From assembly GCF_055900595.2 (NCBI RefSeq), contig NZ_CM148325.1: a DNA stretch of 64,000 bases. One strand, 5' to 3'. The first letter of the stretch is position 1; every line of letters begins with the position of its first letter. The notes under the pieces were generated by a model, which saw nothing but the letters and a program-made list of their open reading frames with translations, did not search any database and was not told the origin of the DNA. Both the position numbers and the translations under genes were made by a program. Shown here piece after piece: positions 2,686 to 56,040 of this stretch.

Positions 2686-3609
2686 ATGAATAATTTACCG
2701 CTGCTGAACGATTTGCGCGTCTTTATGCTGGTGGCTCGCCGGGCTGGTTTTGCCGCTGTGGCGGAAGAATTGGGCGTTTCACCGGCGTTCGTCAGCAAGC
2801 GCATCGCCTTGCTGGAGCAAACGCTAAACGTGGTGTTGTTACACCGCACCACCCGCCGCGTCACCATTACCGAAGAAGGAGAGCGGATTTATGAATGGGC
2901 GCAGCGGATTTTGCAGGATGTTGGTCAAATGATGGACGAACTTTCTGACGTGCGTCAGGTGCCGCAGGGGATGCTGCGTATTATCAGCAGCTTTGGTTTT
3001 GGACGACAGGTAGTGGCTCCGGCGTTATCAGCGCTGGCGAAAGCGTATCCGCAACTGGAGTTACGTTTTGATGTGGAAGACCGACTGGTCGATTTGGTCA
3101 ATGAAGGCGTCGATCTCGATATTCGCATTGGCGATGATATCGCCCCTAATTTAATCGCCCGCAAACTGGCGACTAATTACCGCATTCTCTGCGCGTCGCC
3201 GGAATTTATTGCGCAACATGGCGCGCCGAAACATTTAACCGATCTTTCTGCATTGCCGTGCCTGGTCATTAAAGAGCGCGATCATCCTTTTGGTGTCTGG
3301 CAATTACGCAATAAAGAAGGCCACCATGCGATTAAAGTTACCGGCCCACTGTCGTCTAATCATGGAGAAATTGTCCATCAGTGGTGTCTCGATGGGCAGG
3401 GGATTGCTCTGCGCTCCTGGTGGGATGTTAGCGAAAACATTGCCAGTGGTCATTTAGTACAAGTGCTACCGGAATATTACCAGCCAGCAAATGTCTGGGC
3501 CGTTTATGTTTCAAGGCTGGCGACGTCAGCGAAAGTGCGGATAACGGTAGAATTTTTACGCCAGTATTTTGCCGAGCACTACCCGAATTTTTCACTGGAC
3601 CACGCCTGA
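2686..3609 (+). CDS. dmlR: LysR-family transcriptional regulator of dmlA
   Basis: ORF track 2665-3609; start moved to MNNLPLLNDLRVF to give 307 aa as recalled for K-12; N-terminal HTH then LysR substrate domain. Confidence 0.88.
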   Translation: MNNLPLLNDLRVFMLVARRAGFAAVAEELGVSPAFVSKRIALLEQTLNVVLLHRTTRRVTITEEGERIYEWAQRILQDVGQMMDELSDVRQVPQGMLRIISSFGFGRQVVAPALSALAKAYPQLELRFDVEDRLVDLVNEGVDLDIRIGDDIAPNLIARKLATNYRILCASPEFIAQHGAPKHLTDLSALPCLVIKERDHPFGVWQLRNKEGHHAIKVTGPLSSNHGEIVHQWCLDGQGIALRSWWDVSENIASGHLVQVLPEYYQPANVWAVYVSRLATSAKVRITVEFLRQYFAEHYPNFSLDHA

Positions 3610-50596: not shown

Positions 50597-51925
50597 CTGA
50601 TGAATCCCCTAATGATTTTTATCAAAATCATTAAGTTAAGGTAGATACACATCTTGTCATATGATCAAATGGTTTCGCCAAAAATCAATAATCAGACAAC
50701 AAAATGTGCGAACTCGATATTTTACACGACTCTCTTTACCAATTCTGCCCCGAATTACACTTAAAACGACTCAACAGCTTAACGTTGGCTTGCCACGCCT
50801 TACTTGACTGTAAAACTCTCACTCTTACCGAACTTGGCCGTAACCTGCCAACCAAAGCGAGAACAAAACATAACATCAAACGAATCGACCGATTGTTAGG
50901 TAATCGTCACCTCCACAAAGAGCGACTCGCTGTATACCGTTGGCATGCTAGCTTTATCTGTTCGGGCAATACGATGCCCATTGTACTTGTTGACTGGTCT
51001 GATATCCGTGAGCAAAAACGGCTTATGGTATTGCGAGCTTCAGTCGCACTACACGGTCGTTCTGTTACTCTTTATGAGAAAGCGTTCCCGCTTTCAGAGC
51101 AATGTTCAAAGAAAGCTCATGACCAATTTCTAGCCGACCTTGCGAGCATTCTACCGAGTAACACCACACCGCTCATTGTCAGTGATGCTGGCTTTAAAGT
51201 GCCATGGTATAAATCCGTTGAGAAGCTGGGTTGGTACTGGTTAAGTCGAGTAAGAGGAAAAGTACAATATGCAGACCTAGGAGCGGAAAACTGGAAACCT
51301 ATCAGCAACTTACATGATATGTCATCTAGTCACTCAAAGACTTTAGGCTATAAGAGGCTGACTAAAAGCAATCCAATCTCATGCCAAATTCTATTGTATA
51401 AATCTCGCTCTAAAGGCCGAAAAAATCAGCGCTCGACACGGACTCATTGTCACCACCCGTCACCTAAAATCTACTCAGCGTCGGCAAAGGAGCCATGGAT
51501 TCTAGCAACTAACTTACCTGTTGAAATTCGAACACCCAAACAACTTGTTAATATCTATTCGAAGCGAATGCAGATTGAAGAAACCTTCCGAGACTTGAAA
51601 AGTCCTGCCTACGGACTAGGCCTACGCCATAGCCGAACGAGCAGCTCAGAGCGTTTTGATATCATGCTGCTAATCGCCCTGATGCTTCAACTAACATGTT
51701 GGCTTGCGGGCGTTCATGCTCAGAAACAAGGTTGGGACAAGCACTTCCAGGCTAACACAGTCAGAAATCGAAACGTACTCTCAACAGTTCGCTTAGGCAT
51801 GGAAGTTTTGCGGCATTCTGGCTACACAATAACAAGGGAAGACTCACTCGTGGCTGCAACCCTGCTTACTCAAAATCTATTCACACATGGTTACGTTTTG
51901 GGGAAATTATGAGGGGATCTCTCAG
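50597..51925 (+). mobile_element. IS10 (IS4 family), complete 1329-bp copy
   Basis: Outside end CTGATGAATCCCCTAATGATTTT at 50597, inside end ...GGGGATCTCTCAG at 51925; perfect 9-bp target-site duplication CACCCAGTA at 50588-50596 and 51926-51934. Confidence 0.93.
50704..51912 (+). CDS. IS10 transposase
   Basis: 402-aa ORF MCELDILHDSLYQFCPELHLKRLNSLTLACHALLDCKTLTLTELGRNLPTKARTKHNIKRIDRLLGNRHL... matching recalled IS10/Tn10 transposase almost exactly. Confidence 0.95.
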   Translation: MCELDILHDSLYQFCPELHLKRLNSLTLACHALLDCKTLTLTELGRNLPTKARTKHNIKRIDRLLGNRHLHKERLAVYRWHASFICSGNTMPIVLVDWSDIREQKRLMVLRASVALHGRSVTLYEKAFPLSEQCSKKAHDQFLADLASILPSNTTPLIVSDAGFKVPWYKSVEKLGWYWLSRVRGKVQYADLGAENWKPISNLHDMSSSHSKTLGYKRLTKSNPISCQILLYKSRSKGRKNQRSTRTHCHHPSPKIYSASAKEPWILATNLPVEIRTPKQLVNIYSKRMQIEETFRDLKSPAYGLGLRHSRTSSSERFDIMLLIALMLQLTCWLAGVHAQKQGWDKHFQANTVRNRNVLSTVRLGMEVLRHSGYTITREDSLVAATLLTQNLFTHGYVLGKL

Positions 51926-53005
51926 CACCCAGTATGTATGGAAGTCTGAAGATGTTGAGAATGTCGGTATGATACTATATACACATATTTTACTAAGTAT
52001 TTTTACTAAGCATTTCAGTAAGTGTTATACACGTATTTTCTACTAAGTGTTTTACCAGACATACACGTGTTTTCATAAACAGCCCTATAAGTGTTTTCAT
52101 TAAGCATTGCTGTACACATTGCTTTGTCTGAAACACATCCAGTTTAGTAAATCTTTACGTTAGCTAAAATCAGTTTAAAGCTGCTGTAAAACCTTTCTGT
52201 TTAAGCAATCAATCTGCTATTCGATTTTACTGATGTTGCGTTTAACCTTTTCTGAGATTTCGAGTTTCGACGTTAGCATGAGAAAAGTATCTTTACGCTA
52301 AATCAACCCGAACTTTCCTGAAGTAATCTGACGTTTTTTTCGATGTGCTTACGACGATTCTGTTAAACGACTTTCTGGATGTTTTGATAACAATCAGATT
52401 GAGGCATTAACGATTCCTGACGTTTTCTTTTCCGTGTAAGGTCATTCTTTTTGTCATGAGGTTTCTTCTTGCATTGCGAAAGTGTGATGAACGGTTTTGG
52501 TGTTTTTGATTCAGATAAGGTTTACGTTATCGATGGTTAACCGTTTTTATGGTGCGTAGTGAAACGTAACTTTTTCAGGATGAGAAAATCGATTCTGATG
52601 TTGGTGATTTTTGTTCTTGTGGCGGGGTTTATCTGTAAACAGGTTTTAAACGTGTCATTCACATCCGTGATTGAGTTGTGTGATTAAGCTGTAGGTTTTG
52701 GGGTTGTTGTTGATTTGCATTACCAGGAAGCGTTCTGGTTGCGTTTCTGGTGTTTTGTTCGAATGTTCTGTGGATCCTTTTCCCTTCTGACTTTTCTCGT
52801 TGTCCATGTCGTTTTTAAATCCATTCGCTGTTCTTGAGTGTTTTTACCCTGCGTGTAGAATTATCTTTTCGTTCCGGGATGGTTTGTTCCGTTTCAATCA
52901 CTCTTAATCAGAGAGTTGTAGCATTGCTCAATGCCGGATGCCGTAAAGTTTTACCGCGGTGATTAATGATGTGAAGTCAATCCAAATCAACGGAGATCTC
53001 TCATC

Positions 53006-53737
53006 ATGAATCAACCAATACACAATGCTTACTGGTTATCCCGTTTTGAAAGTATTCTCAACAGTGCCCTGGCGCAGCACCGTGCCGTCTCGTTAATCCG
53101 GGTGGATTTACGTTTCCCTGAGTATATGCCTGCCACCATCATGGATACCGATTTAGATTCAGCGGTGATTTCTCGTTTTTTTGCATCCCTGAAAGCAAAA
53201 ATTCAGGCTTACCAGCGACATAAACGACGTGCCAACAAGCGTGTGCGTGCAACCACTCTGCGTTATTTCTGGTGTCGGGAGTTTGGCAAGGAAAAAGGCA
53301 GGAAACATTATCACGTGATATTACTGCTCAACAAAGATACCTGGTGCTCGCCAGGGGATTTCACCGTTCCTTCTTCGCTGGCGACACTGATCAAGCTGGC
53401 ATGGTGTAGTGCTCTGCATCTTGAGCCCTGGCAGGGTAATGGACTGGTTCATTTTTCCAGGCGGACGCCTTTCCGTAAACCGACATCATCTGATGCTCGC
53501 CCTTCTTCCGATGATACGCCTTTGTCGGGTGGATGTTCTGATACCAGGAAGGCTTCAGACAAAAAGCCGGGTGAAGCCGCTGTTCTCTGGATCAAGCGTG
53601 GTGATGTGGAAGCGCTGCAGAAAGCCCGGAACAGAGCCAGTTATCTCGTGAAATATGAGACGAAGCAGCATGACGGTTCCGGGCAACGTAATTATGGTTG
53701 CAGTCGTGGGCCGGGGCGTCTGCTGGATGGCAGGTGA
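53006..53737 (+). CDS. YagK/YfjJ-family protein (island-associated, inovirus Gp2-like)
   Basis: 243-aa ORF with ...LIRVDLRFPEY...KHYHVILLLNKD... motifs; preceded by conserved leader motif. Confidence 0.6.
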   Translation: MNQPIHNAYWLSRFESILNSALAQHRAVSLIRVDLRFPEYMPATIMDTDLDSAVISRFFASLKAKIQAYQRHKRRANKRVRATTLRYFWCREFGKEKGRKHYHVILLLNKDTWCSPGDFTVPSSLATLIKLAWCSALHLEPWQGNGLVHFSRRTPFRKPTSSDARPSSDDTPLSGGCSDTRKASDKKPGEAAVLWIKRGDVEALQKARNRASYLVKYETKQHDGSGQRNYGCSRGPGRLLDGR

Positions 53738-54063
53738 GCCCTGTAAAACGACATCCGGTGTCTGAGCTTATGCTACAGGACGTTGGCTGACGCCCTTAGC
53801 TCGTTTTCTGAAAAAGTCGTCCTGAAGTCATGCAACGGTATTTTTCTCTGCTTTCGCTCCTGGAAACACTCCGTCGGTAAAACCTTACTGTCCTGCTTAA
53901 TGATGTGAACCGAAGTCAACGGAGATCATTCATTCTGAACCTGCATCCGGTGTTCTGTCCCTTGTCGGTTACCTGATCTTCCCGTTCTGCCGCGGTTTTT
54001 CACTTATTCCATCAACCCCATACGCAAGCCATAACACGTCAGCGCATCCACGGGCAGGACGCG

Positions 54064-54666
54064 TTGTGGGCTGCGTATAACGGAACATATCTTATGAATG
54101 CTATCCCTTATTTCGACTATAGCATGGCGCCCTTCTGGCCATCTTATCAGAACAAAATCATCGGCGTTCTCAACCGTGTGTTGCGCGAGCAGTCCGGCTC
54201 CAGGATACGGCGGATCCTGCTTCGTCTGCCGGGGGAACATGGCAACATCTTCAGCGACAGAAAAACCTGGTTCGGTATGGCCTTTATCGAAACCGTCAGT
54301 GCGCTGATGAATGCAACCCCCGGACGCGACCTCTGCTGGCTCCTGACACGTCATCCTGAAAAACCGGAATACCACGTGGTGCTGTGCGTCAGACAGGAAT
54401 ATTTCGACGGCCCTGAGCTGGACCGGTTGATTCTGGATGCCTGGAGCAACGTACTGGGCTTCGCGTCACCGGGTGAAGCAGCACCGTACCAGAAACAGAT
54501 AACCCGGGATGTGGTGCTGGACAGTTGTTCACCGGACTGCGAAGAGAGACTCAAAGAGCTGATATGGGCGTTCAGTGATTTCGCCCGCGATCGTCGTGGT
54601 GTGCGCGATCCGGAAGCCCGTTACCTCGCCGGTAATCCCTGGTATCCCGTAGCAGGCCAGCTCTGA
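54064..54666 (+). CDS. YagK/YfjJ-family paralog
   Basis: 200-aa ORF with corresponding motifs RILLRLPGEH and PEYHVVLCVRQE; same leader motif upstream; true start may be an internal Met. Confidence 0.55.
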   Translation: MWAAYNGTYLMNAIPYFDYSMAPFWPSYQNKIIGVLNRVLREQSGSRIRRILLRLPGEHGNIFSDRKTWFGMAFIETVSALMNATPGRDLCWLLTRHPEKPEYHVVLCVRQEYFDGPELDRLILDAWSNVLGFASPGEAAPYQKQITRDVVLDSCSPDCEERLKELIWAFSDFARDRRGVRDPEARYLAGNPWYPVAGQL

Positions 54667-54734
54667 AAGCTCAGCTCAGCAGATTCACCCGCATTTGCCC
54701 AACATTCATAAATCTCACAGAGGACATTCTGACC

Positions 54735-54971
54735 ATGTTGACCTCAATGACAGGTCACGACAGCGTATTGCTGCGTGCCGACGATCCCCTGATCGACATG
54801 AACTACATCACCAGCTTCACTGGTATGACCGACAAATGGTTTTACAAGCTGATCAGTGAAGGCCATTTCCCTAAACCCATCAAACTGGGGCGCAGCAGCC
54901 GCTGGTACAAAAGTGAAGTGGAGCAGTGGATGCAGCAACGAATCGAGGCATCACGAGGGGCAGCAGCATGA
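54735..54971 (+). CDS. AlpA-family phage/island transcriptional regulator (excisionase-like HTH)
   Basis: 78-aa ORF with ...YITSFTGMTDKWFYKLISEGHFPKPIKLGRSSRWYKSEVEQWM. Confidence 0.78.
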   Translation: MLTSMTGHDSVLLRADDPLIDMNYITSFTGMTDKWFYKLISEGHFPKPIKLGRSSRWYKSEVEQWMQQRIEASRGAAA

Positions 54972-55720
54972 AACGTGTTGTAATGCCGGTACGCTGGCAA
55001 TGTGCAAAATACCAGCGTTGGTATTGTGGAAATCAGCCCTGTCCCTGGTGCTGGCGACCTGCTGCCCCCGTCTGTCATTCCTCGTTCTTCGCTGTAACAG
55101 GCATCGTACCGGTCTCGGCGTGCTTTCCTGCGTACCGACACCGGTTCAGCAACATTCAAGGGGATCAAATCGTGCAAATAACCGAAACCGTACTTTCAGA
55201 GCCGGTGGAAATCCGGCGTTTTATTCAGCAGGCGGTGGATCACTGGCCGCGTCTGCTGGCCGTCCACTTCACACTCCATTCGGCAGAAGGAAACATCAAC
55301 GGACAACAGATTCATGCATTCTGTACTTCCTTTTACCGACAGGTGCACGAGCGTATTACTGAACGTAATCACACGGCCAGTCCAGCACCACCGGTGGTAT
55401 TACGCTGGTTGCGGGAACAACATGGAGGAGCAACAATGCGATGCCTGTTGCTGCTCAGCCAGACGAGCATTTGCCATCCACGGGTCAGTGCCACGGTTGA
55501 TGAAGAATGTTCGCAACGGGTGGATTTATTGCAACAGACATGGCGGGTGATAAGTGCTGACGGACAATGCCGGGTGGAAAGGTGTTTTCAGGCTGCCCGG
55601 GGTGATACATCCGGCCAGTATATTGCGTTAAAAACAGTTGCATTGTCTCTGGGGTTACCGGTTGTGACCGGTATTACCCATCGCCCGGTACAGCGCTGTA
55701 CATTGATTACAGCTCAGTGA
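54968..55720 (+). CDS. Hypothetical protein with cysteine-rich N-terminus
   Basis: ATG at 54968 overlaps alpA stop (ATGA); N-terminus has CAKYQRWYCGNQPCPWCWRPAAPVCH; alternative GTG start near 55174; no family recognised. Confidence 0.4.
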   Translation: MKRVVMPVRWQCAKYQRWYCGNQPCPWCWRPAAPVCHSSFFAVTGIVPVSACFPAYRHRFSNIQGDQIVQITETVLSEPVEIRRFIQQAVDHWPRLLAVHFTLHSAEGNINGQQIHAFCTSFYRQVHERITERNHTASPAPPVVLRWLREQHGGATMRCLLLLSQTSICHPRVSATVDEECSQRVDLLQQTWRVISADGQCRVERCFQAARGDTSGQYIALKTVALSLGLPVVTGITHRPVQRCTLITAQ

Positions 55721-55737
55721 ACAGCGCTGTTGTGCAG

Positions 55738-56040
55738 TCAACGAGGTTTTCTGTCTTTTCGTCGGTCATTCAGCATCATTAAACGGGTCTCTGCCTCTTT
55801 CTGTTCCTGTGGTGTCACTTCCCCGCACGGCTGACCGTTCAGGTTGTAACGGGCGCCACCTGCTATTAACGCACGGTAATAGCGCGGAGACTGCACATAA
55901 GACGCCACTGCTGCATGTAATGTACCAGCGCCAAACGCCAGTTCTCGGATGGCGATATCCTGTATCAGGTCGTCAGGTATCCCCACTTTAAGTGGTTTTG
56001 TTTTTTTCCCGGTTGAATGACTCAGGCCAGAGTTCCACAA
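55738..56040 (-). CDS. Hypothetical 100-aa protein
   Basis: ORF only; basic C-terminus; no family recognised. Confidence 0.3.
   Translation of the reverse strand: MWNSGLSHSTGKKTKPLKVGIPDDLIQDIAIRELAFGAGTLHAAVASYVQSPRYYRALIAGGARYNLNGQPCGEVTPQEQKEAETRLMMLNDRRKDRKPR

Follow-up and report, generated by a model that had tools for sequence, protein, structure and literature searches.

In autoregulated plasmid and phage rep control regions, a palindromic or iterated operator overlaps the promoter or leader of the replication-initiator gene. The intergenic region of the Ff phages (f1/M13) upstream of gene II harbours the gpII origin together with binding repeats. Immunity of phage P4 relies on repeated leader sequences, seqA and seqC, which are the targets of the CI RNA (seqB), and the alpBCDE genes of Pseudomonas aeruginosa are associated with an AlpA-binding element and AlpA-dependent antitermination.

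The locus described here lies in a 64-kb stretch of DNA (hereafter the window) and harbours two copies of a short leader block, one in front of a Rep-like gene (gene A) and the other in front of a cluster of three genes (B-alpA-D). Coordinates are those of the window, and the genes and leader blocks described are on the plus strand. Similar to autoregulated rep control regions, a short palindrome and an AT-rich segment immediately precede a Rep-like gene and continue into its ribosome-binding site (RBS), with further copies of the site nearby (52147, 53877), but here there is no consensus promoter and one of the copies heads B-alpA-D. As in the Ff intergenic region, a conserved non-coding element directly precedes an inovirus-Gp2-type gene, and both have an AT-rich, TTAAT-containing core; however, there is no nick-site hairpin in our locus, and the second copy goes with gene B rather than with a Rep gene. 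The P4 system also belongs to a P4/CP4-like element with a short repeat in the leaders of consecutive transcription units, but it requires a complementary RNA, whereas the window has no antisense copy of the block and no Rfam match. Finally, our locus shares with the P. aeruginosa system an alpA-family gene in an operon-like cluster, a cis site near the starts of transcription units and a terminator-like hairpin separating gene A from the genes that follow, although the AlpA protein of the Escherichia coli islands is nearer to the P4 Vis/excisionases. The leader element is ordinary in kind and undescribed in detail; the literature on yfjJ/yagK, inovirus Gp2 and AlpA binding sites and searches with the literal sequence strings yielded no description of it.

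Two homologous leader blocks

The initial annotation had reported two words recurring upstream of two genes, and both indeed occur exactly twice in the window and in the same order. TTAATGATGTGAA (word 1) is present at 52963-52975 and 53897-53909 and TCAACGGAGATC (word 2) at 52987-52998 and 53916-53927, with no third exact copy of either; the second word as originally given, GTCAACGGAGATC, is exact in copy 2 only and reads ATCAACGGAGATC in copy 1. A repeat search placed both words in a longer gapped match (52943-52975/53877-53909 and 52972-53010/53901-53939), which defines a non-coding repeat of about 65-70 nt at 52940-53010 (copy 1) and 53873-53939 (copy 2). The copies differ by a 5-nt indel; the spacer between the words is 11 nt long in copy 1 and 6 nt in copy 2. 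A single 12-13-mer could well recur in 64 kb by chance, and at up to two mismatches the counts were at chance level. The alignment of the two upstream regions that had been proposed as a check gave a local score of 41, above the 18.6 +/- 2.3 (maximum 28) of 300 shuffles, and confined the likeness to 52940/52960-53010 and 53873/53894-53939. No significant similarity was found in the flanks on either side, including the coding start of gene A. A search with an nhmmer profile of the block detected the two sense copies and no further or antisense copies in the window, its minus-strand matches merely reflecting the palindrome.

Copy 1 (52940..53010) consists of a palindrome, word 1, an 11-nt spacer, word 2 with a Shine-Dalgarno sequence and the start codon of gene A. 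The 16-nt palindrome, CCGTAAAGTTTTACCG (52941..52956; core GTAAA-GT-TTTAC), lies just 5' of word 1, which includes the -10-like hexamer AATGAT and a mini-frame, ATG ATG TGA. Word 2 contains GATC, and the Shine-Dalgarno sequence GGAG (52992-52995) is located 10 nt before the ATG at 53006, so that the motif does abut the start codon, as had been noted. Copy 2, taken with its B-specific 5' part CCTGGAAACACTCCGT, spans 53859..53939 and comprises a 16-nt palindrome (CGGTAAAACCTTACTG, 53875..53890; CGGTAA-N4-TTACCG in most relatives), word 1, a 6-nt spacer, word 2 and a relic start region. Its GGAG (53921-53924) is not followed by a start codon. The position equivalent to the gene A ATG, 10 nt after GGAG, is occupied by CTG (53935..53937), and because CTT or TTA is found there in other loci, this CTG is not a conserved start codon. 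A conserved small peptide encoded in the block on either strand was rejected since the open reading frames differ between the copies.

The two blocks are thus homologous and in the same orientation, and this part of the earlier proposal of a tandem duplication that included the leader stands. A simple duplication of gene plus leader does not: the similarity ends at 53010/53939, its 3' extension is at chance level, there is no homology into the genes, copy 2 has no ATG, and a non-coding filler parts it from gene B. In related islands, the gene for a short YagK paralog is preceded by yet another version of the leader (GTAAGTTATTACCG...TGATTATGA), which is more diverged; an origin of the leaders by duplication fits with this.

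The core of the palindrome, GTAA-N4-TTAC, is found three times in the window (0.76 expected), all within 52.1-53.9 kb. The third site, GTAAATCTTTAC (52147..52158), is about 850-860 nt upstream of gene A, and 39 of 66 unique A-upstream regions have such a distal palindrome between -790 and -910. All 66 of these regions harbour the core, at 1.6 occurrences per region compared with 0.03 expected. The arms hardly vary, in contrast to the spacer and the outer positions. The 13-mer GTAAAGTTTTACC recurs in a Providencia island, between alpA and a YagK gene whose product is 39% identical. The palindrome has the sequence features of an operator for a dimeric DNA-binding protein and is a putative operator. 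In one account, winged helix-turn-helix (wHTH) excision factors such as AlpA are described as usually binding direct repeats, not palindromes (PMC7498355). By eye, the window copies (CCGT...ACCG and CGGT...ACTG) do not fit a LexA box (CTGT-N8-ACAG), a pattern that does fit a K-12 CP4-6 site, and the spacing is wrong for a TyrR box.

No sigma-70 promoter was found in either block (-35/-10 elements, 16-18 nt spacing, at least 9/12 matches), and a consensus scan for terminators gave no site there either. By eye, the blocks hold only the -10-like AATGAT, and any -35 element would be very poor. All observed variants of word 1 keep the xAxxxT of this hexamer.

The genes behind the blocks

Gene A (53006..53737) is intact and encodes a 243-residue YagK/YfjJ protein ('inovirus Gp2 family') with HYH (HUH) and YLVKY motifs; its start matches the RefSeq annotation. 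Among Pfam families it matches PF11726 (E = 2.9e-36, 125.4 bits for a cut-off of 25.8) and PF23343 (E = 3.4e-10). Residues H101, H103, Y213 and K216 are invariant in an alignment with YfjJ, YagK and the short YagK. Gene A keeps the HUH and putative catalytic Tyr motifs of Rep-type endonucleases. Weak matches to PHROG replication-initiation families were also obtained, and a profile search of the PDB with the YagK alignment gave chance matches only.

Gene A is followed by a hairpin and T-tract (53777..53809) that is terminator-like in relatives, with a weakened stem in the window. In one related locus (L007, 3388-3411), a 9-bp stem is followed by GATCGTTTTC, and the fold z-score is -2.7 there vs -0.6 in the window. 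Across loci the stem is conserved and the loops are variable. A terminator-like hairpin at this place implies that B-alpA-D needs its own start signal.

Gene B (54094..54666) encodes an E. coli-restricted protein of 190 residues. The initial annotation had regarded both genes as YagK/YfjJ-like paralogs, but this can be demonstrated for gene A only: gene B has no Pfam or NCBIfam match at E <= 0.1 and no PHROG match at E <= 0.01. The two proteins share only about 21% identity. A comparison of gene B with YagK using hhalign, for which the profiles were shallow, gave a probability of 70% across 104 columns (E = 4e-5), and BLASTP gave E = 0.02. The HUH motif of gene B is broken, reading EYH instead of HYH; the alignment ends ahead of the Tyr motif, so that no catalytic Tyr is aligned. 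Its AlphaFold model is unusable (pLDDT 39). At best, gene B may be a remote, degenerate relative of YagK, possibly of its N-terminal domain.

The ATG of gene B is 166 nt from word 2 of copy 2. The intervening non-coding filler (53940..54093) is replaced in some islands by unrelated sequence; its two unrelated forms (~170 nt) range from 149 to 194 nt. The filler is highly conserved towards its 3' end, where it terminates in the RBS of gene B, AACGGAA (54079-54085), and this region (AACGGAR...ATGAAT) echoes word 2 and the gene A start. We rejected the possibility that copy 2 is the start of an N-terminal extension of gene B: all B homologues begin with MNAIPYFDYS, the frame upstream of gene B is open in one leader length class only, and the CTG is not conserved.

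Downstream of gene B, an alpA-family gene (54735..54971) codes for a Vis/excisionase-like wHTH protein (PF05930, E = 2e-10); the AlpA of the E. coli islands matches TIGR01764 with E = 4e-4, below the cut-off. Gene D (55172..55720) encodes a 182-residue protein labelled YagK/YfjJ-domain or UCP030791 in some RefSeq records. A ProQ/FinO-family pseudogene is found nearby.

The initial annotation had also considered a shared regulatory or structured RNA element. Its regulatory half is retained in the reading that we favour below; an element acting at the RNA level in the mRNA appears improbable to us. In one form of this explanation, word 1 (GAUUAAUGAUG) would pair with the gene A start region (CAUCAUGAAUC), through the segments GATTAATGATG/CATCATGAATC, and control translation; in another, the block would be the common target of a small RNA or of a ProQ/FinO-type protein, for which the nearby pseudogene might be a hint. 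Of 11 positions, 10 are complementary between word 1 and the gene A start region, and the AUG is buried in the predicted fold. A natural variant, GATTCATGATG, gives perfect pairing, and the palindrome variant of the window, TTACTG, retains a G-U pair. However, the variants GATGAATGATG and ATGAAC break pairs without compensation, changes in the palindrome and the putative stems are one-sided with a single pair-improving one, and in several loci copy 2 has no complementary start region. The test for RNA structure that had been advised was negative: folds of both copies, on both strands, were not better than those of shuffled sequences (z from -1.3 to +0.7), and a scan of 51900-56500 against Rfam 15 down to E = 5 gave only a sub-threshold chance match, PhotoRC-I, inside gene A. 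The lack of an antisense copy of the block in the window also argues against it.

Conservation and linkage in related islands

A majority of the complete E. coli genomes that were searched harbour homologues of the locus. The 5,426 complete E. coli genomes hold about 2,500 A-type and about 4,100 B-type places, and strains that carry the island include TUM9803, GF4 and the Nissle/ABU 83972 lineage. In related loci, the A-type block is nearly invariant (76 instances, 32 distinct sequences), with several variants of the 35 nt located 5' of it, and 79 instances of the B-type block correspond to 38 distinct sequences. As the metagenome loci were chosen by exact words, conservation estimates that include them are biased; among copies outside this selection, the words are exact in 68/69 B leaders and 67/75 A leaders, with TGAATGATG, TTCATGATG and TTAATAATG as variants of word 1. 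In eight loci, the pairwise identity of the B-type block is 0.81-0.97 vs 0.45-0.65 in the flanks, much of this difference coming from mosaic flanks and not from point divergence. When loci sharing a filler type are compared, the block and the 3' part of the B leader are equally invariant, so an extra constraint on the block itself is not demonstrated.

Only E. coli-type islands carry the exact words. A scan of species-representative genomes and viral contigs detected them in one Enterobacteriaceae metagenome-assembled genome (MAG), with both copies, and in one viral contig; two unrelated matches, in an archaeal MAG and a Chryseobacterium genome, were taken as chance. The motif is absent from the regions upstream of yfjJ, yagK, yfjI and alpA in K-12.

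Copy 2 always accompanies B-alpA-D in about 150 related loci. It precedes every B gene, whether gene A or the gene for the 188-residue short YagK is upstream, and with either of the two unrelated fillers downstream. It is missing where other cargo follows gene A (loci L003-L006), and we thus rejected the idea that it represents the 3' boundary of gene A.

This linkage bears on the view that copy 2 is a passive, functionless relic, either what remains of the 5' end of a YagK-type gene that was lost or rearranged, or the product of conversion from copy 1, its apparent conservation stemming only from a young and often-recombining island family. We consider this view rather unlikely. It is consistent with the loss of the start codon and the drift of that position between CTG, CTT and TTA, with the equally low diversity of the neighbouring leader sequence within a filler type, with the restriction of the exact words to E. 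coli-type islands and with the highly mosaic nature of these islands, which reach up to 12 copies per genome. It does not readily account for the retention of the block in all of the about 80 B loci, in two upstream contexts and next to both fillers, or for the clearly greater variability of the adjoining 3' sequence (53940-53990). The proteins have also diverged to the edge of detection, yet the A and B leaders are still about 80% identical, and the palindrome core is found at analogous positions in other genera.

In contigs with both copies, the A-block invariably comes before the B-block in the same orientation (26/26), at a distance of 0.93-10.2 kb and with variable cargo in between. Such an arrangement of direct repeats might indicate that the blocks are nick and termination (ori/ter-like) sites for the HUH protein A, with rolling-circle release or capture of the segment that they bracket, made up of gene A, a variable slot for 0-7 kb of cargo and the short YagK paralog. 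The HUH and Tyr motifs kept in gene A, the AT-rich, repeat-bearing region upstream and the position of the Ff phage origin just upstream of gene II are in line with this explanation, which we nevertheless hold to be very improbable. Cargo boundaries do not coincide with the blocks but are scattered over roughly 70 nt of the gene A 3' flank; neither hybrid A/B blocks nor 'empty' junctions were found among about 150 instances; and the unit never occurs in other flanking contexts, its context being constant. Moreover, copy 2 occurs with the short YagK even when there is no A-block in the few kb upstream that were examined (L008-L010), and the hairpin-loop architecture of nick sites is absent. The signs expected of a rolling-circle origin/terminus pair following an IS91-like logic, namely boundaries at the repeated sites, hybrid or empty sites and varied contexts, were thus not observed.

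A putative control region of a common island module

The best explanation overall, to which we give about an even chance, is that the block is a cis-regulatory leader that came to be shared through duplication, probably a control region bearing an operator. Within one family of P4/CP4-like E. coli islands, this non-coding block of ~65-80 bp would represent the ancestral 5' leader of the YagK/YfjJ-type (HUH Rep-like) genes, made up of the GTAA-N4-TTAC palindrome, a short linker, the AT-rich TTAATGATGTGAA, a spacer and the ribosome-binding TCAACGGAGATC. Copy 1 still serves gene A directly, with GGAG as its Shine-Dalgarno sequence. Copy 2 is a paralogous leader that has lost its start codon; it lies beyond the hairpin behind gene A and forms the beginning of the long 5' region of B-alpA-D. 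We infer that the retention of both copies is due to a common cis-acting control site, most likely a palindromic operator beside a weak, factor-dependent promoter. A single DNA-binding protein of island or host origin would thereby switch the Rep-like gene and B-alpA-D together. The homology and layout of the blocks, the linkage of copy 2 with gene B, the conservation and the recurring palindrome are observed, and the promoter/operator function and the co-regulation of the two units are predicted.

If the block were only a relic, it would amount to a tidy piece of island anatomy and nothing beyond. If instead the blocks were Rep sites, they would define a rolling-circle-mobilisable cassette in P4-like islands and provide a function for the widespread, uncharacterised YagK/YfjJ family. 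The module adjoins a cargo hot spot, and the intervals examined carried, for example, ireA and genes for a restriction endonuclease and an acyltransferase. YagK/YfjJ 'inovirus Gp2' genes and their alpA neighbours are a conserved part of the backbone of very common E. coli islands, and the ~65-bp block with its recurrent palindrome offers a concrete handle on what switches this module on.

Island setting and anatomy of the repeated block

The window represents a CP4/P4-like genomic island of E. coli. Several complete E. coli chromosomes match its segment 52700-55800 at 99.9% identity, and 2,857 of 5,426 genomes contain related copies of it, with a maximum of 12 per genome. Genes were listed from the RefSeq annotation of identical loci and our own checks. 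Gene A (53006-53737; 'inovirus Gp2 family'; PF11726 YagK_YfjJ_C, E = 2.9e-36; PF23343, E = 3.4e-10) precedes gene B (54094-54666; 'hypothetical protein' in RefSeq), an alpA-family gene (54735-54971; PF05930) and gene D (55172-55720), which some records describe as YagK/YfjJ-domain or UCP030791 and which has no Pfam match here. The ProQ/FinO-family gene convergent with gene D (minus strand, 55738 to ~56250) is frameshifted, and it is annotated as such in all related genomes inspected.

Upstream of gene A lies ~1.08 kb of AT-rich non-coding DNA (51926-53005; GC 0.33-0.41, strong T skew). It includes iteron-like direct repeats of the TAAGTGTTTT type (51976-52115; spacings of 24-94 nt) and has a homologous stretch of 72-99% identity in related islands. 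Its possible roles are those of an origin-like region, a silencing platform or a regulatory region. At its left edge is an IS10 copy (approximately 50597-51925; transposase at 50704-51912), an insertion that the closest complete genomes consulted for the annotation do not have; the minus-strand genes farther left are those of the usual island backbone, namely GTPase, DUF932, antirestriction, RadC and CbtA/YeeU.

The initial annotation had reported two words recurring ahead of genes A and B, and had placed the first copy against a start codon; both observations are confirmed. Word 1, an AT-rich 13-mer, and word 2, a ribosome-binding 12-mer with GGAG, each occur exactly, and exactly twice, in the window, colinear inside a longer gapped repeat (52940-53010 and 53873-53939). 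The local alignment score of the upstream regions, 41 vs 18.6 +/- 2.3 in shuffles, is above chance, and similarity is not significant in the flanks beyond the block on both sides, including the coding start of gene A. From 5' to 3', this ~65-nt block consists of a 16-nt palindrome (CCGTAAAGTTTTACCG in copy 1; CGGTAAAACCTTACTG in copy 2, for which most relatives have CGGTAA-N4-TTACCG), a linker of 6 nt, word 1, a spacer (11 nt in copy 1, 6 nt in copy 2), word 2 and a short tail. In copy 1, gene A has its Shine-Dalgarno sequence in word 2, as GGAG at 10 nt from the ATG. The proposed duplication including the leader is partly right: the leaders are homologous, but similarity ends at the block, and copy 2 has CTG at the position equivalent to the ATG (CTT or TTA in other islands), its word 2 being 166 nt from the gene B ATG.

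Gene B and the company kept by copy 2

The description of the two genes as YagK/YfjJ paralogs holds unambiguously for gene A, whose HUH motif (HYH) and YLVKY tyrosine motif are invariant across YfjJ, YagK and the short YagK, a 188-aa paralog found in related islands with sub-threshold PF11726/PF23343 matches. For gene B, which has no match in Pfam, NCBIfam or PHROG, the relation is not established. Its 61 matches show nearly always at least 71% identity, every annotated one is from E. coli, and the gene is confined to this species. Gene B may be a degenerate YagK relative in which the catalytic residues have been lost, because a remote profile-profile match of its residues 18-123 to the YagK family (N-terminal two-thirds; 70% probability, E = 4e-5) sets its EYHVVL opposite the HYHVIL of the family. 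The structure model was too poor for use (pLDDT 39).

We compared related loci from complete genomes and 120 metagenome contigs bearing the words. In loci with other genes (restriction endonuclease, ireA, acyltransferase) behind gene A, no copy 2 was found within ~2 kb 3' of gene A. The block stands ahead of every gene B, at a distance of 149-194 nt, and this pairing is the same with gene A or the short YagK upstream. The filler between block and gene B has two unrelated forms; the alternative one, of ~180 nt, carries an annotated 49-aa minus-strand ORF (L010 2601-2750, L011 2706-2855; WP_001421645/WP_001385640) missing from the window. All 26 contigs with both block types show the A-type followed by the B-type on the same strand, separated by ~935 nt on half of them and by 4.1-10.2 kb on the rest. 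The larger intervals, as seen on six contigs, comprise the A-block, gene A, ~100 nt of its 3' flank, variable cargo, the short YagK, the B-block, the filler and gene B, with alpA and D coming after B in annotated genome loci. The window is the cargo-free form of this layout. The cargo hot spot maps between ~53810-53858 and the B-type block; in related islands (L029, L043, L050, L053, L058, L065, L091, L114) it holds 3-9 kb, including a restriction endonuclease, ireA, an acyltransferase/pseudouridine-kinase cluster, a YfjI-like gene and others as well as the short YagK.

Blocks that are always direct repeats around variable cargo, together with a gene A predicted from its motifs to be catalytically intact, would suit paired recognition sites for Rep on either side of gene A and a cargo slot. 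We consider this highly improbable: left cargo junctions are scattered over roughly 70 nt in the gene A 3' flank and not at the blocks, hybrid or empty sites number 0 in ~150 instances, and the flanking context is constant.

Conservation of the block and its palindrome

In a comparison of eight loci, pairwise identities are 0.81-0.97 in the B-type block (53859-53938) vs 0.45-0.65 in its flanks, a contrast for which mosaic flanks account in part. For 51 loci that share one filler form, diversity is 0.03-0.12 in the block and 0.02-0.09 in the 3' part of the filler, only the 45 nt directly after the block being clearly more variable. A neutral relic, preserved through youth and recombination, is a possible but rather unlikely explanation of the block. 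In loci retrieved via the other copy, 68 of 69 B leaders and 67 of 75 A leaders have exact words (variants: TGAATGATG, TTCATGATG, TTAATAATG, TCAATGGAG), and the block is unchanged ahead of A-type homologues with only 62-74% protein identity.

The GTAA-N4-TTAC core occurs three times in the window (0.76 expected), always within 52.1-53.9 kb: in both leader copies and at a distal site (52147-52158, GTAAATCTTTAC). A-upstream regions contain 1.6 such cores on average vs 0.03 expected (66 unique regions), and 39 of the 66 have the distal palindrome at -790 to -910 of gene A. The four-base arms are almost invariant; the spacer and outer positions vary. Near the distal site, GCTGTAAAACCTTTCTG (52183-52198) resembles the copy 2 palindrome.

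The leader of the short YagK (GTAAGTTATTACCG then TGATTATGAGCG) can be aligned with both blocks, A and B, along the palindrome and the first part of word 1. A Providencia island (L146), whose YagK has 39% identity, harbours the 13-mer GTAAAGTTTTACC (3120-3135), identical to the copy 1 palindrome, after the stop codon of YagK and ahead of the alpA start, i.e., at the position of copy 2 in the window, and a Brenneria YagK leader (L145 ~2420-2460) is similar to the B-type block (AAAAACTT.ACC..TTG.TTAAT). In both islands, alpA is the direct neighbour of YagK. Nothing comparable was found in other distant homologues, nor at K-12 yfjJ and yagK. K-12 CP4-6 has a perfect palindrome, CTGTAATTTATTACAG, between ykgV and yagM (L018 4911-4926), which fits the LexA-box outline CTGT-N8-ACAG; the window palindromes do not fit that outline.

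A putative shared control region

The structured RNA suggested initially was not borne out, as neither copy, on either strand, folds better than shuffled sequence, and no Rfam family matches. In copy 1, word 1 is complementary to the start-codon region at 10 of 11 positions, and one natural variant makes this pairing perfect. Two other variants break pairs without compensation, several copy 2 versions have no pairing partner for word 1, palindrome changes are one-sided, and the window contains no antisense copy of the block. The case for an RNA-level element is weak, and we regard it as improbable. The whole B leader folds with z = -2.1; its most conserved part includes a long imperfect hairpin (54018-54078) just 5' of the gene B ribosome-binding site, for which one relative has a double, non-compensatory change at paired positions.

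A DNA element fits better, because the half-sites are conserved with a free spacer, the module has the palindrome around it in three places and gene A is followed by a terminator-like hairpin (53777-53809; TAAGGGCGT-loop-ACGCCCTTA and a T-tract). In L007 (3388-3411), this hairpin has a 9-bp stem and a T-tract; relatives keep the stem while loops vary, and the window version is weakened by deletion or substitution. With such a hairpin after gene A, B-alpA-D would need its own start signal. Against this reading, neither block contains a consensus sigma-70 promoter. By eye, word 1 includes a -10-like AATGAT, of which every observed variant keeps the xAxxxT pattern, but a convincing -35 is missing; if AATGAT were the -10, the palindrome would lie at about -36 to -21.

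We see about an even chance that the block functions as a shared cis-regulatory element, of the operator-bearing control-region kind. It would represent the ancestral leader of YagK-type genes in this island family, multiplied along with them. Copy 1 would still serve gene A, and copy 2, its gene start lost, would have been preserved ahead of the B-alpA-D unit. Both would be retained because they carry the same putative control region, so that the Rep-like gene and the alpA cluster would respond to one regulator. The closest analogies would be autoregulated rep-gene operators, the Ff intergenic region 5' of gene II, the repeated leader targets of CI RNA in P4 and AlpA-binding elements. The P4 system is defined by a complementary RNA; we looked for one in the window and found none. 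The literature searched contained no mention of the block sequences and no description of the control of the island genes. The block is undescribed and ordinary in kind, a putative duplicated control region common to island genes that may be paralogous.
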